A stretch of 37,193 nt of DNA. Source: a virus. Its lineage: Duplodnaviria > Heunggongvirae > Uroviricota > Caudoviricetes. The stretch covers positions 1-37,193 of IMG/VR virus record IMGVR_UViG_2534681832_000017. One strand, written 5' to 3'. How positions within the stretch are numbered: the first letter of the stretch is position 1; every line of letters begins with the position of its first letter. Both the position numbers and the translations under genes were made by a program. This document shows positions 1 to 34,062 of this stretch, in pieces. The notes under the pieces are model-generated. The model was not told the origin of the DNA. It did no database searches and saw only the letters and a list, made by a program, of their open reading frames with translations.

Positions 1-169
1 TATTCAGGTCTGCGCAGCACTCAACGGCATCGTCAAAATTATCAAAGCGCAGAGCTTCTGCGTCTTCTTCGTCAAAGAAGTCATCGTCGTGAAGCTTCAC
101 GACATAGCGGGGAAGTTTGCTTCTTTGAGGGGCAGGTTTTCGTTTACGGGGTTTAGCTGAACGGGACAT
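1..169 (-). CDS. hypothetical protein, N-terminal 56 codons only (gene runs off the left edge of the window)
   Basis: ATG at 167-169 (minus strand) with AGGT about 8 nt upstream; open to position 1; basic N-terminus MSRSAKPRKRKP; absent from ORF track because it is truncated. Confidence 0.3.
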   Translation of the reverse strand, partial: MSRSAKPRKRKPAPQRSKLPRYVVKLHDDDFFDEEDAEALRFDNFDDAVECCADLN

Positions 170-182
170 ATAACTACCTGAA

Positions 183-205
183 AGACAATGATATTGTCTG
201 TTTTT
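183..205 (+). terminator. putative rho-independent terminator
   Basis: 7-bp stem AGACAAT/ATTGTCT with 3-nt loop followed by GTTTTT. Confidence 0.3.
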
Positions 206-303
206 ATAACGGTAATTTCAGGCCATGACAAGCCGCAGCCGCCAGGCTGCCTACTCGAACTAAACGTATCTATATCAATGCCAGCGCGCGGCAGGCAGAG
301 GAT

Positions 304-768
304 ATGCTCGCGCTTATGCGTAAGTCTCTGGGTTCTCTTCCTGCTGTTCCCCTGAGTGTTGAAAATCCCATTGAATTAACGCTGACCGACTGGGTACGTG
401 ATGGTAGTGCTCCACAGGGATTTCAAATGGGGGATGCGGCAGAACTTAAGGCAGTGCTTGAGGATGGCGGTATTGCCCGAGTGAAAAAGCAGGATTTGGG
501 AAGCGATGAAATTTCCACACACCTGGAAGCTGGCAAGCTCGTCACTAAGTTGGCACTCGACTGGCAGAACCGCATTAAATTTACACTGGACCATAACTTC
601 AGCCTTACCAGCGTCAAATTTGCGGATGAATTGCTTGAGCAGAACTCTGATATTGATAGTGAAGATGTTGCGCAGCGACTGGACGCAGATTTCTTCCTGT
701 TGACCAGTGAAATTTCGTGCCTGGTTGATGCTCTGGTAAATGCCCTTGGCGGAGAGGCTAAGCAGTGA
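304..768 (+). CDS. RdgC-like recombination-associated protein, C-terminal half only (possible truncated hrdC-type gene)
   Basis: ORF track; recalled RdgC C-terminal signature ([25 protein letters not shown]...LGGEA); in-frame similarity continues upstream only to a stop at 226-228, so the N-terminal half is missing; GTGA overlap with next gene. Confidence 0.45.
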
Positions 769-3700
769 AAGAGCTGTGCTATGGATCTGTTTGCAGTGGA
801 ATTGAAGCCGCGAGTATTGCCTGGGAACCGTTGGGTATGCGTCCGGCGTGGTTTGCTGAAATCGAGCCTTTTCCATCGGCCGTTCTTGCGCTCCGCTGGC
901 CCCATGTTGCCAACCTTGGCGACATGAAAAAACTTGCCAAAAAAGTCTTGGCTGGGGAAATCGAATCCCCTGACGTGCTCGTCGGGGGAACACCATGTTT
1001 TACCGCGGGGCATATGGTTCTTTGTAAAAATGGCTATAAACCAATAGAAAATGTTTGCCCTGGTGATTACGTAGTCAGTCATCTCGGGCGGTTACAACAA
1101 GTAAAAAGAGTTGGTTCAAAAATAGCTAATACGGGGTTACTTAATGCCGTTGGGCAGCCTTTAGGTATAAGAACAACCAATGACCATCCCTTCCTGGCTG
1201 TTCGGTGGAAAGCCCAAAACACCCGGAAAAATGGCACATATTTTAAGAGAGAGTTGTTGTCTGAACCGGAATGGCGAGCAGCATGTGATATGCCGGGATA
1301 TCAATGGTGCGCTCTAACTAATTTCAATATTGCATTTCCAGATATTTGTTCTCGGTTCTTGTCTGAAGAACAGGCTATGTATCTTGCGGGCGCTTATGTT
1401 GGCGATGGATATATTAGGAGATGGAGAGGTAAATCTAAGAAGGCGGTTGTTTTTGGCATAAATTGCCAGAAATTGAGAAAGTTTCATTGCCGCATACCAG
1501 AAAACATATTTTCCGTGGCAAGCGAAATCCGAGGGAGCATCAAAGTAACCTTGAATGATACGTGTTATGCCAATTGGCTTAATGAACATTTTGGCGAGTT
1601 AAGCCATGCTAAGCGTATCCCTGCATGGGTGATGTCGCATCCATTGCGTCATGTGTTTTTACAAGGCTATCTTGATACTGATGGGACACCAAGTGGTAAA
1701 GCGGGATTTAGAATTAATAGTGTTAGTTCTGCGCTTGCTTGGGGCGTTGCGGGGTTGTCACAGACTTGTGGTTATGTTTCTTCGGTCAGCTTTATTGAAG
1801 TTGAGCCCAAAAAAGTGATCGAGGATCGCGTGGTAAATCAACGGAATTATTATCAGGTAACAATCTGCCCGCAGAAATTGTCACGTAAATCAAGATTGGC
1901 TCATGGAATGCTTTTACGAACAGTCAAAGAGTTTAAATCGGTAGGCCTAGATACTGTATACAACATAGAAGTCGAAGGTGATCATTCCTATATCCTCAAT
2001 GGTGCGGTGGTCCATAACTGTCAGGCATTCAGTATCGCGGGATTACGTGGTGGGCTTGATGATGAGCGTGGCGCGCTAACTTTAAAGTATGTGGAGCTTG
2101 CAAATGCAATTGACGACAAACGGGCTGAGTCATTTCTCAAACCAGCCGTTATCGTCTGGGAAAATGTCCCAGGAGTCTTGTCATCGGCAGATAACGCCTT
2201 CGGATGTTTCCTTGCCGGATTGGCTGGAGAAGATGTGCCATTTGAACCAGGTGATCGACCTGAATCAGGAAAAAGCAACGCGTTCTGGCGGTGGGATGGC
2301 AAAACCGGTTGCCATGTTCCAAAGTGGCCGCAGTGTGGTTGTATTTATGGACCGCAGCGAAAAGTGGCTTGGAGAATCCTTGATGCCCAATACTTCGGAG
2401 TGGCACAACGACGCCGACGCGTGTTTGTTGTCGCAAGTGCTCGAACAGATCTCGATCCCGCAACGGTACTTTTTGAGTTCGAAGGCGTGCGCCGGAATAT
2501 TGCGCCGAGCAGAGGCGAGGGGAAGGAAACTACCAGATATACTTCAAACATCGCTATCAGAACTTGCGATGATACAAACATAATTGCCATGGCACATGGG
2601 CAAGGAGGGGCTGAGATAAAAACCGATAATTCGGCACCAACTTTGACATGTAACCATGAAGCACCAATTGTATTGCTCGGCGACGGTAGAATGCGCCGTC
2701 TTACCCCTGTCGAATGTGAAAGGCTGCAAGGTTTTCCTGATTGGCATACGTTGATCCCTACGGAAAAGCGTAAAAAAGTTAATTCAGATGAACTGGCATA
2801 TCTGCACAATCACTATCCAGATTTAAGCGAAGAAGAGGCCGCAATGCTTGCAGCTGACGGACCGCGTTACAAAGCGATCGGCAATAGTATGGCAATACCA
2901 GTAATGCGCTGGATTGGCGATCGGATTACTAAGGCCGTATGTCGGCAGAAAGAAGGAAGTGAAACAAAAGAGCGAAAAGTTAAACCAGCGGCAGAATTCG
3001 AACGGTCCATATTCAAATGGGCTGGTGGAAAATTTGGTGTTCTGGAACAAATCTTTCGCTATTTGCCAGAAGGGAAGCGCCTGATTGAACCTTTCGTTGG
3101 TGGCGGAGCTGTCTTCATGAATGCCGGATACCAGGAAAATCTGCTAAATGATGTGAATGCTGACCTGATTAACTTTTACAAGACTCTGCAACGCGAGGCG
3201 CATTCACTTATCACTCTGGCACATCGTTTCTTCCAGGACTACAACACACAGGAAGGATACCTGGCAGTACGGAATGCGTTTAACAAACAAGTCTATGATG
3301 ATTTACATCGCGCAGCGGCGTTTTTGTTCCTGAACCGACATTGTTTTAACGGATTGACGCGTTACAACCAGGCCGGTGAGTTCAATGTCGGTTATGGGAA
3401 GTATAAAACTCCGTATTTCCCATTACAGGAGATGGAAGCCTTCCTCGGTGCGGAAGGGCGGTCTGAGTTTGTATGCGGTGATTTTGCAGCGGTGATTGAA
3501 GCTGCCGGAGAAGGAGATGTCATCTTTTGCGATCCGCCGTATGAACCGCTTCCAAATACAGAGGGATTCACGAACTATTCCGGTCATGACTTTAAGTTTG
3601 AAGAGCAAAAACGCCTGGTGTCTCTGTTGACGGATGCTCATCGTCGAGGTGCAAAGGTTCTCATTACTAACAGTGGCGCGCCAAACATCAGAGAGCTTTA

Positions 3701-3806
3701 TCATGACAGTGGCTTCAGAGTGGAACCTCTTTTTGCCAGACGTTCTGTGTCTTGTAAGGGGGACACTCGAGGTGTAGCTCATGACGTTTTTGGTATATTG
3801 CTCTAA
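765..3806 (+). CDS. dmt: bifunctional DNA methyltransferase: N-terminal C5-cytosine MTase (interrupted by intein) fused to C-terminal Dam-type N6-adenine MTase
   Basis: GTG start coupled to upstream gene; C5 motifs: GGTP|CQAFSIAG (PCQ, split by insert), [28 protein letters not shown]; Dam motifs: [24 protein letters not shown]. Confidence 0.85.
996..2018 (+). mobile_element. intein (341 codons) with LAGLIDADG homing-endonuclease domain, inserted at catalytic Cys of the C5-MTase PCQ motif
   Basis: Insert begins CFTAGHMV (Hint block A-like), contains TTNDHPF (block B-like), [12 protein letters not shown] (1380-1415) and [11 protein letters not shown] (1656-1688), ends NGAVVHN followed by Cys+1 (2019); excision restores [12 protein letters not shown]. 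Confidence 0.8.
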
Positions 3807-3813
3807 TAAATTT
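3797..3813 (+). promoter_or_regulatory. C1-type operator (exact 17/17 match to ATTGCTCTAATAAATTT), overlaps dmt stop codon
   Basis: Exact match to the asymmetric 17-bp P1 C1 operator consensus as I recall it. Confidence 0.6.
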
Positions 3814-3987
3814 ATTAGTGTAATATCGCCTCAATGAATCGTGATTTATAGAGCGATTTAGCTGTTAGCCGCGACAGGCGCGGCGGTAAGCATGGCTGGG
3901 CCTAGTCCTCCCAGACAAACCACCGAGTTGCCAGGTTGACCATGCGCCTAAGTGGCAACGCCGAAGTGCGTTACGAGCTTCCAGTTT

Positions 3988-4013
3988 GCCCATCTTCGGG
4001 TGGGCGTTTTTTT
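3988..4013 (+). terminator. rho-independent terminator
   Basis: Stem GCCCATC/GGTGGGC with TTCG tetraloop followed by T7 run. Confidence 0.6.
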
Positions 4014-4479
4014 CAGGGTTTTCGTCATGGTTAGCGACTTTGCGGCGGTTTAGAAACTGACCATTAAAGTAAATGCAAACGATGATCTGATGATGGTAGC
4101 GGCCTAAGAAGCCAGATGCCACGGGGTATGAGTCGTCCCCCGTCAAAAAAATCGACCGCAGAGTGTCCCCGTCTGTGTATTAGGGAACGGGGAGGCACAA
4201 CAGGTAAGGGCGCTGGTGTGATTAACCAGATGAACGAGAAGGGGCCATCTGTTGGTCAGCGTCCTTTCCTGTTGCGTTTTCTTTTCAGCGTAACAGCGGT
4301 GCTTAACAGCACTTTGGGTACAGTTCCACGAATTTACGGGTATATCCCGTCATGCTGAAGGCGCTAATCACGCTGGAAGCCAGGGTTGTGCATCCCCTGT
4401 TACCGAATTGCAGCTAGGGCGCGGTGCGCCGAAAAGCATACGGAGGTGGAAGCCCTCGCCGGAGACGTACCCGGCAAGT

Positions 4480-4555
4480 GATGGTGTAGCTCAGCGGTTA
4501 GAGCAGTTGGCTGTTAACCAACTGGTCGGTAGTTCGAATCCACCCACCATCGCCA
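4480..4555 (+). tRNA. tRNA-Asn (anticodon GUU)
   Basis: Cloverleaf: acceptor GATGGTG/CACCATC, D-arm GCTC-AGCGGTTA-GAGC, anticodon loop CTGTTAA, T-loop TTCGAAT, discriminator G, encoded CCA; one A-C mismatch in T-stem. Confidence 0.8.
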
Positions 4556-4560
4556 CTTTA

Positions 4561-4647
4561 GGGGAGTTAGTCCGTAGGGGTAGCGGGGTAGACTGTAAAT
4601 CTACTGTCATTGCGACTCGGGTGGTTCGACTCCATCACTCCCCACCA
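4561..4647 (+). tRNA. tRNA-Tyr-like (anticodon GUA), type II with long variable arm; non-canonical D-arm
   Basis: Acceptor GGGGAGT/ACTCCCC 7 bp, anticodon arm GTAGA-CTGTAAA-TCTAC, variable arm with GTC/GAC hairpin, T-arm GGTGG-TTCGACT-CCATC, encoded CCA; D-stem only forms with a 3-4 nt linker after the acceptor stem. Confidence 0.55.
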
Positions 4648-4651
4648 CATT

Positions 4652-4727
4652 GCCGATTTAGCTCAGTTGGTAGAGCAGTCGCTTTGTAAGCGAATGGTCA
4701 GCGGTTCGATCCCGTTAATCGGCACCA
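4652..4727 (+). tRNA. tRNA-Thr (anticodon UGU)
   Basis: Acceptor GCCGATT/AATCGGC, D-arm GCTC-AGTTGGTA-GAGC, anticodon loop TTTGTAA, T-loop TTCGATC, encoded CCA; resembles E. coli tRNA-Thr(UGU) from memory. Confidence 0.85.
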
Positions 4728-32868: not shown

Positions 32869-34062
32869 GTGACCTGGGACGATCACAAGAAGAATTTTGC
32901 TCGCCTGGCGCGAGATGGTGGTTACACCATCGCACAGTATGCCGCCGAGTTTAATCTTAACCCTAATACTGCACGTCGTTATCTCCGTGCCTTCAAAGAA
33001 GACACCAGGACAGCGGACAGCCGCAAGCCAAATAAGCCAGTCAGGAAGCCACTAAAAAGCATGATCATTGATCACTCTAATGATCAACATGCAGGTGATC
33101 ACATTGCGGCTGAAATAGCGGAAAAACAAAGGGTTAATGCCGTTGTCAGTGCCGCAGTCGAGAATGCGAAGCGCCAAAATAAGCGCATAAATGATCGTTC
33201 AGATGATCATGACGTGATCACCCGCGCCCACCGGACCTTACGTGATCGCCTGGAACGCGACACCCTGGATGATGATGGTGAACGCTTTGAATTCGAAGCG
33301 GGCGATTACCTGATAGATAACGTTGAAGCGCGGAAGGCCGCGCGCGCTATGTTGCGTCGTTCCGGAGCTGATGTTCTGGAAACCACTCTTCTGGAAAAGT
33401 CTCTTTCTCATCTCCTTATGCTGGAGAACGCCCGGGATACGTGTATTCGCTTGGTGCAGGAAATGCGCGATCAGCAAAAAGACGATGATGAAGGTACTCC
33501 GCCTGAATACCGTATCGCGAGCATGCTAAACAGCTGTTCCGCGCAGATAAGCAGCCTGATCAACACCATTTACAGCATCCGCAATAACTATCGAAAAGAA
33601 AGCCGGGAGGCGGAAAAGCACGCTTTATCTATGGGGCAAGCTGGCATTGTTAAGCTGGCATACGAACGAAAGCGTGAAAATAACTGGTCAGTGCTGGAAG
33701 CGGCTGAATTCATCGAGGCGCATGGAGGGAAAGTGCCGCCCCTGATGCTGGAGCAAATCAAAGCCGATCTGCGTGCTCCTAAGACAAATGCCGATGATGA
33801 GGAAAGGCAAACTGCCGTCGGTGGCCCTTCTCTTGAAGATCTGGACAAAGTTGCGCGAGAACGGGCCGCCAACCGCCGCGCCGATGCTGCATTGTGGATT
33901 GAGCAACGTAGGGAAGAAATCGCCGATATCGTTGATACAGGCGGTTATGGAGATGTTGATACTGAAGGTGTATCAAACGACCCATGGCTGGAACAAGACC
34001 TGGACGAAGACGAGGAGGAAGACGAAGAAGTTACCCGCAAGCTATACGGGGATGATGATTAA
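32869..34062 (+). CDS. pacA: terminase small (pac-recognition) subunit
   Basis: ORF track (GTG start, SD GAAAGGAAG); contains the hexamer-repeat pac site; acidic C-terminus. Confidence 0.8.
33062..33220. other. pac packaging site: 4 + 3 TGATCR hexamers, each containing a Dam GATC
   Basis: TGATCA at 33062, 33069, 33081, 33096; TGATCG at 33192; TGATCA at 33204, 33215; about 90-bp spacer between clusters. Confidence 0.75.

Follow-up and report, generated by a model that had tools for sequence, protein, structure and literature searches.

The window analysed here, the whole 37,193-nucleotide (nt) stretch of IMG/VR virus record IMGVR_UViG_2534681832_000017, contains an open reading frame (ORF) that is very probably the dmt gene of a P1-like (Punavirus) phage-plasmid, with a short variable region of the type found in phage P7 and a LAGLIDADG intein inserted in the C5-cytosine methyltransferase (MTase) half of its product. 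The ORF (765..3806 on the plus strand, as are all parts of the gene given below) runs uninterrupted from a GTG start codon to a TAA stop codon at 3804-3806 and specifies a precursor of 1013 amino acids (aa). As an earlier note on this DNA had proposed, a C5 MTase half is followed by a Dam-like N6-adenine MTase half in a single polypeptide: Pfam families PF00145 and PF02086 match within the one ORF, and the frame of the window is free of stops and frameshifts between the two domains. The enzymatic activities that we infer for this Dmt protein are held with less confidence than its identity and architecture.

A megablast search of the ORF against phage records gave matches only in P1-group phages, where the gene is annotated as dmt or dam (96-99.6% DNA identity), and it is this identity across the exteins, together with the conserved P1 position of the gene, that identifies the ORF as dmt. 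The neighbourhood is P1-like throughout, with hrdC upstream and the operator Oban, tRNA genes (4480-4727), tciA-C and ban downstream, so that the kinship with P1 dmt suggested by the earlier note is borne out by both sequence identity and synteny. The start codon of dmt overlaps the stop codon of hrdC in the tetranucleotide GTGA at 765-768, and the position and context of this start match those of the annotated dmt genes of P1, P7, OP279344 and Ro157c2YLVW. The exact 1013-aa protein is already deposited in NCBI and UniRef, where it is found on 38 contigs under the name ‘Dam family site-specific DNA-(adenine-N6)-methyltransferase’. An alignment of five alleles (the window, OP279344 ‘P1’, Ro157c2YLVW, the P1 reference and P7) gave protein identities of 91-98% and the order C5 MTase then Dam in all five, which led us to reject the idea that the domains are ordered differently from those of P1 Dmt. 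The proteins differ in length (P7, 672 aa; P1, 754 aa; window, 1013 aa; Ro157c2YLVW and RCS47, 1095 aa) through two independent insertions or deletions alone, the intein (+341 aa) and the variable region (+82 aa), and from this pattern it follows that the window allele is a P7-type Dmt plus an intein.

The intein spans aa 78-418 (341 aa; 996..2018) and was delimited by Pfam and NCBIfam matches and by its precise absence from the dmt genes of P1 and P7. It splits C5 motif IV between Pro77 and the catalytic cysteine (GGTP/CFTAGH...VVHN/CQAFS), at the very point where P1 and P7 read GGTP/CQAFS; the intein-less sequence of the insertion site is GTCGGGGGTACGCCT/TGTCAGGCATTCAGT. Its removal in silico leaves a protein of 672 aa, the length that the earlier note had given for the product without the intein, and restores both colinearity with P7 Dam (672 aa) and a contiguous match to the C5 MTase profile: PF00145 gains from 104.9 to 125.8 bits, with aa 8-135 now matched in a single stretch that crosses the junction. 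The residues expected of a splicing intein are in place, with Cys78 as Cys1, a block B T-x-x-H (T138, H141) and a terminal H417-N418, while Cys419 serves at once as the +1 residue of the intein and as the catalytic cysteine of the C5 MTase. Two LAGLIDADG motifs are present, LAGAYVGDG (nt 1383-1409) and LQGYLDTDG (nt 1659-1685). The LAGLIDADG_3 model (cut-off 22.5) scores 30.2 bits in the precursor and 34.2 bits for the intein alone, and the model of intein C-termini, TIGR01443, reaches 28.9 bits (cut-off 15.6). In seven relatives that share 29-53% identity with this intein, all inserted at the same point of motif IV in PF00145 proteins, Cys1, T-x-x-H, the Asp and Gly of LAGLIDADG, the terminal Asn and Cys+1 are invariant.

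The C5 MTase half is thus carried by two exteins. The N-extein (aa 1-77; 765..995), defined by Pfam and alignment, comprises the N-terminus of the C5 domain and holds motif I (VCSGIEAAS) as well as GGTP, the half of motif IV that precedes the intein. The C5 part of the C-extein (aa 419-725; 2019..2939; alignment and Pfam) begins with Cys419 of motif IV (CQAFS) and continues with ENV (aa 466-468), QRRRR (aa 548-552), a further motif at aa 644-658 and GNS of motif X (aa 706-708), so that motifs I, IV (PCQ, with the catalytic Cys), VI (ENV), VIII (QRRRR), IX and X are all present and in order; the motif quoted from this region by the earlier note sits where it had been placed, at aa 701-713 (nt 2865-2903). 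In the precursor PF00145 matches with an E-value of 7e-30 and the 104.9 bits given above (cut-off 22), broken into four stretches, and TIGR00675 reaches 95.5 bits, slightly below its cut-off of 100.65. Between motifs VIII and IX, alignment places the variable (target-recognition) region at aa 584-643 (2514..2693), which is of the short P7 type. OP279344 and P7 have the same short region, whereas P1, Ro157c2YLVW and RCS47 have one that bears no relation to it and exceeds it by 82 aa. Of 400 matching plasmid records, 184 cover the short type over its whole length. The ratio of nonsynonymous to synonymous substitution rates (dN/dS, Nei-Gojobori) was calculated between alleles and came to 0.13-0.18 in the C5 part and 0.05-0.16 in the Dam part; on these small counts both halves look constrained. 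A literature search for the cytosine specificity of Dmt returned nothing specific and no paper with a 5-methylcytosine (m5C) motif.

Two observations on the C5 halves of other alleles are recorded here. The dmt of the P1 reference (L002, 3001-5265) has Trp at aa 74, in place of the otherwise invariant Gly of VLVGGTPCQ beside motif IV, and this substitution might impair the C5 activity of reference-strain P1. Another P1-like contig (L007, 2800-5224; GCA_020002795.1) carries a third, unrelated type of variable region, and its dmt is called as two overlapping ORFs (420 and 407 aa), a split that is due to a frameshift or sequencing error inside the variable region.

A Lys/Glu-rich linker (aa 726-747; 2940..3005), defined as the gap between the domain matches, joins the C5 half to the Dam-type (D12 class) domain at aa 748-1013 (266 aa; 3006..3803), which was delimited with Pfam, NCBIfam and an alignment to E. 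coli Dam. PF02086 (D12 class N6-adenine MTase) matches aa 752-984 with an E-value of 1.9e-56 (192.1 bits, cut-off 22), and TIGR00571 ‘dam’ of NCBIfam scores 248.7 bits against a cut-off of 114.85. The equivalog model of chromosomal Dam, NF008152, scores 242.7 bits, below its cut-off of 441, and Dmt is therefore a member of the Dam family and not an orthologue of housekeeping Dam. The domain contains FKWAGGK (aa 750-756), a further motif at aa 775-784, the FxGxG motif for binding of S-adenosylmethionine as PFVGGG, and DPPY at aa 923-926 (nt 3531-3542), where the earlier note had it; the catalytic residues of Dam are thus present on alignment. With E. coli Dam (PDB 2g1p/4gbe) the Dam half aligns at 40% identity over 259 positions (E-value 5e-57), and the counterparts of K9, N120, L122 and R124 are kept, as are DPPY and FxGxG. 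It is closer still to P1 Dmt, whose Dam domain is ~99% identical and to which the P1 record credits GATC methylation.

The junction between C5 motif X and the N-terminus of the Dam domain is kept in Salmonella and Phytobacter relatives at 46-53% identity, and the fusion therefore predates the P1 group. On one Salmonella contig (L006, 74-1354) a C5-Dam fusion, broken off where the contig stops, shares 53% identity over the junction and lies ~1.2 kb from a phage integrase gene, from which it follows that the fusion also exists in integrated prophages outside the P1 group. Homologues of ~400 aa that look like a C5 remnant plus Dam were considered as natural split enzymes and rejected, P0038 being cut by a contig end; likewise, P0020 is not a natural short form but the latter half of a dmt that a frameshift has divided in two.

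In light of these features, we propose that the gene would be translated into the 1013-aa precursor, from which the intein would excise itself, Cys78 attacking, Asn418 cyclising and Cys419 acting as the +1 nucleophile, to yield a 672-aa bifunctional C5/Dam enzyme and a free homing endonuclease. By analogy with P1, and given the ~99% identity of the Dam domains, the Dam half of the spliced enzyme would methylate GATC, including the GATC sites of pac; the C5 half would methylate a cytosine motif set by its swappable variable region, probably in protection against restriction. Since the Dam half lies wholly downstream of the intein, it should fold and act regardless of splicing. The pac site itself lies inside pacA at 33062..33220 (plus strand), 29 kb from dmt, and was recognised as a cluster of GATC sites (eight in 200 bp, compared to ~0.8 expected) with 98.2% identity to P1 pac. 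Four TGATCA hexamers (33062, 33069, 33081 and 33096) and three TGATCA/G hexamers (33192, 33204 and 33215) flank the region of the integration host factor (IHF) and cleavage sites, both of which are annotated in P1 pac. A review (PMC12707154) traces the dependence of pac cleavage on Dam methylation to Sternberg & Coulby (1990) and states that P1 dmt is required for the use of pac in dam- hosts. If the same holds here, the Dam half would methylate the seven pac sites, a modification needed for cleavage by the pacase, and GATC methylation by Dmt would make packaging independent of host Dam.

The distribution and composition of the intein fit those of a mobile element that is homing now or did so recently. 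Its GC content is 42.7%, compared to 47-55% in the exteins; three alleles that diverge by ~2% in their exteins show only 5 differences in the 1023 nt of the intein, and it is found alongside both the short and the long variable region. The inteins of OP279344, Ro157c2YLVW and RCS47 occupy the same site and are 98-100% identical. In the five aligned alleles, 18 single-nucleotide polymorphisms (SNPs; seven in the N-extein and 11 in the C-extein) are perfectly linked to the presence of the intein and lie within about -120 to +160 nt of the insertion (window 885-995 and 2019-2180); the last three codons of the N-extein account for three of them, all synonymous (GGT ACG CCT to GGA ACA CCA). This pattern resembles a co-conversion tract, or else a homing site shielded from renewed cleavage, and the free endonuclease would be expected to spread the intein into intein-less dmt alleles. 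The intein is present in 129 of the 471 PLSDB plasmids that carry a P1-type dmt and in 152 of the 480 complete E. coli genomes that do so (5,426 genomes were covered, of which it thus occupies ~3%). Its share of the P1-type dmt genes in these two sets is ~27-32%. No intein was annotated in the records inspected, and a literature search for an intein in the dmt of P1, P1-like phages or Punavirus found no paper; it is possibly the principal natural intein in circulation in E. coli, and is apparently undescribed in the searchable literature.

Several points weigh against the view that dmt of the window yields a spliced, doubly active enzyme. Splicing, both methylations and endonuclease activity are all predicted from the sequence. 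Hint_2 scores 28.1-28.2 bits, slightly short of the Pfam cut-off of 28.4, and Intein_splicing 18-21.7 bits, short of its cut-off of 35.8; in the Dam half the counterparts of Y119 and P134 of E. coli Dam are changed to F and G, respectively, and these are among the residues to which the structure described by Horton and colleagues in 2006 is said to assign DNA or GATC contacts. The P1 and P7 records word the C5 activity of Dmt as ‘perhaps’, the dN/dS values and the co-conversion pattern are drawn from five sequences and a few dozen substitutions, and the end of an IS91-family element ~500 nt upstream may leave dmt poorly expressed or off its native promoter. The sub-threshold scores, the merely putative C5 activity of P1 Dmt and the NCBI name, which speaks of a Dam family enzyme only, would also suit an alternative in which the intein splices poorly or not at all, leaving the C5 half as a dead passenger and the 1013-aa protein to work solely as a Dam enzyme with a long N-terminal extension. 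We consider this unlikely: every canonical residue of class-1 splicing is in place and none varies in relatives as distant as 29% identity, the six C5 motifs are intact, the C5 exteins are about as constrained as the Dam half, and the intein allele is frequent and nearly invariant. Because the intein occupies the C5 catalytic cysteine and leaves the Dam half untouched, one may also conceive of it as a post-translational switch, whereby the precursor methylates GATC and licenses pac, and cytosine methylation is added only upon splicing, which might depend, for example, on the redox state of Cys78 and Cys419 or on growth phase; with such a switch, a single gene would let P1-like elements run two methylation programmes at different times, yet we regard it as very improbable.

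There is an outside chance that a functional Dam is made separately from an internal start in the C5 region, so that the fusion is not the sole or main active form. The P7 record predicts a late promoter, LPdam2, at nt 989-1007 of the gene, the exact 19-mer of which recurs in OP279344 and Ro157c2YLVW; in-frame Met694, Met709 and Met714 follow its position, and one relative (P0024) has a Dam-only ORF of 351 aa annotated as ‘DNA adenine methylase’. LPdam2 is a prediction only, however; its counterpart in the window (2776-2794) departs from it at two positions of the -22 box (AAGTTAATT vs AAGTTTCTT), and no exact copy exists in the P1 reference. Moreover, the frame runs open from the C5 half into the Dam half in all alleles examined, and the Salmonella and Phytobacter relatives described above conserve the junction. 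A separate Dam product could in any case exist beside the spliced fusion enzyme that we favour. The earlier note had gone further and proposed that the fusion, the C1 operator downstream of it and the GATC-rich pac site together form a methylation-coupled control of packaging. All three do exist in the window, and the link between methylation and packaging stands as known P1 biology, but the operator belongs to another operon. The perfect C1 operator ATTGCTCTAATAAATTT at 3797-3813, which overlaps the stop codon of dmt, is one half of the divalent Oban a/Oban b (3797-3813 on the plus strand and 3808-3824 on the minus strand), which matches the operator annotated in P1 base for base. According to the P1 record, Oban overlaps the promoters P1ban and P2ban and controls the downstream ban operon, not dmt; judged by this identity, Oban in the window is the regulator of the downstream tRNA/tci/ban operon, and the downstream operator as a regulator of dmt was rejected. 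With all three elements being conserved, annotated features arranged as in P1, pac lying 29 kb away at 98% identity to that of P1, and the Dam dependence of its cleavage published in 1990, an unrecognised, element-specific packaging circuit is improbable in the extreme.

In P1 and P7, dmt comes third in the series uhr-hrdC-dmt, which is transcribed from Pdmt, and C1 controls it at a separate operator (Odmt/Op68) that lies upstream of uhr. In the present record uhr, Pdmt and Odmt lie outside the window, and the end of an IS91-family element intervenes in hrdC. What is left of hrdC, an rdgC homologue, is a 3' remnant at 258..768 (plus strand) whose last ~170 codons are homologous to P1 hrdC; the homology begins at nt 258, and stop codons lie in frame upstream of it. 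The preceding 1..261 (minus strand) comprises the terminal sequence of the IS91-family element and the 5' part of a 121-aa ORF, as identified by matches to a plasmid repeat that is found in 1,481 plasmid records at 99-100% identity, often in several copies per record; in pE2855-2 the same repeat is the end of an element carrying the 121-aa ORF and an IS91-family transposase. No match to the repeat was found in phage records, and the junction between the IS91-family end and hrdC was not found in 5,426 complete E. coli genomes. As this end truncates hrdC, dmt is cut off from its normal position behind Pdmt and Odmt. A scan of nt 1-4500 for sigma-70 promoters gave no plus-strand candidate upstream of dmt, which is a weak negative.

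Some features downstream of dmt are recorded here as well. A strong terminator-like hairpin at 3984-4016, with a GC-rich stem followed by T7, stands between Oban and the tRNA genes, where the region described as dicF-like in the P1 record ends. A tRNA-Tyr (GTA) gene at 4561-4647 lies between tRNA-Asn and tRNA-Thr, as in Ro157c2YLVW, while the annotations of P1 and P7 list only tRNA-Asn and tRNA-Thr there, without tRNA-Tyr. No non-tRNA match was obtained with Rfam, at the gathering threshold, in the region from Oban to the tRNA genes.

The fusion by itself adds nothing new, Dam-dependent cleavage of pac being a classic result. The annotation of P1 Dmt as a bifunctional C5/Dam enzyme reportedly goes back to the P1 genome paper, and the C5-Dam fusion, already known as Dmt of P1 and P7, is ordinary in this phage family; the allele of the window is likewise common and previously deposited. 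What is added, to a modest extent, is the unannotated intein and the modularity of the variable region, and the least-described items are the intein and the IS91-family end that truncates hrdC. Taken together, P1-type dmt appears as a mosaic of three modules, namely an intein that is present or absent, a variable region of at least three types and a conserved Dam domain. The homing intein is common in E. coli phage-plasmids and yet unannotated, since records name the protein ‘Dam family’ only. This bears on annotation, on users of P1 laboratory strains with differing dmt alleles, and on methylome studies, in which m5C motifs could be sought for each type of variable region.

Inteins in mycobacteriophage DNA methylases (Kelley et al., 2016, PMC5050341; Gosselin et al., 2023, PMC9957025) are akin to that of the window as LAGLIDADG homing inteins of orphan methylases, patchy in distribution and horizontally transferred, but only the intein part is similar, at ~27% identity (tblastn). 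According to Kelley et al., the methylases that host them belong to the N6_N4 type and not to the C5 type, with other insertion sites, and on account of these exteins we rejected them as instances of the same insertion. LAGLIDADG inteins at the same site, between the Pro and the Cys of motif IV, with the same block structure and 27-52% identity, occur in Mannheimia phage vB_MhS_587AP2 (48%), Propionibacterium phage B22, EBPR siphovirus 2 and E. coli jumbo phages; unlike Dmt, the phage and prophage proteins that host them are stand-alone C5 MTases of other phage lineages, without a C5-Dam fusion. E. coli Dam (2g1p, 4gbe) and M.DpnII (2dpm) share with the Dam half the fold signature of the D12 class, the order of motifs and DPPY, but the Dam half of the window is a domain of a larger protein.

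Within the P1 group, P1 Dmt (YP_006537.1, 754 aa; NC_005856), annotated as bifunctional, is the product of the same gene in the same uhr-hrdC-dmt-Oban context. It agrees with the window protein in the C5 catalytic motifs of the N-terminal part, in the linker and in the Dam domain (~99%), but it is without the intein and has an unrelated variable region that is longer by 82 aa and presumably directs it to a different cytosine target. Dmt of Ro157c2YLVW and RCS47 (1095 aa) has the same intein but the long, P1-type variable region, whereas that of OP279344 (‘P1 del res del mod’, 1013 aa) has the same intein and the short variable region and is thus identical in architecture to the window protein. 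We note that OP279344.1 is titled ‘Escherichia phage P1 isolate del res del mod’ and yet encodes 1013 aa, compared to 754 aa in the P1 reference; strains called P1 therefore differ in their dmt modules. Closest in its mature form is P7 Dam/Dmt (YP_009914544.1, 672 aa; NC_050152), which occupies the same position and has the same C5-Dam order, variable region, linker and Dam domain; P7 differs in being without the intein and in having the other bases at the intein-linked SNPs, while the spliced product predicted for the window is colinear with P7 Dam residue for residue, at 97% identity.

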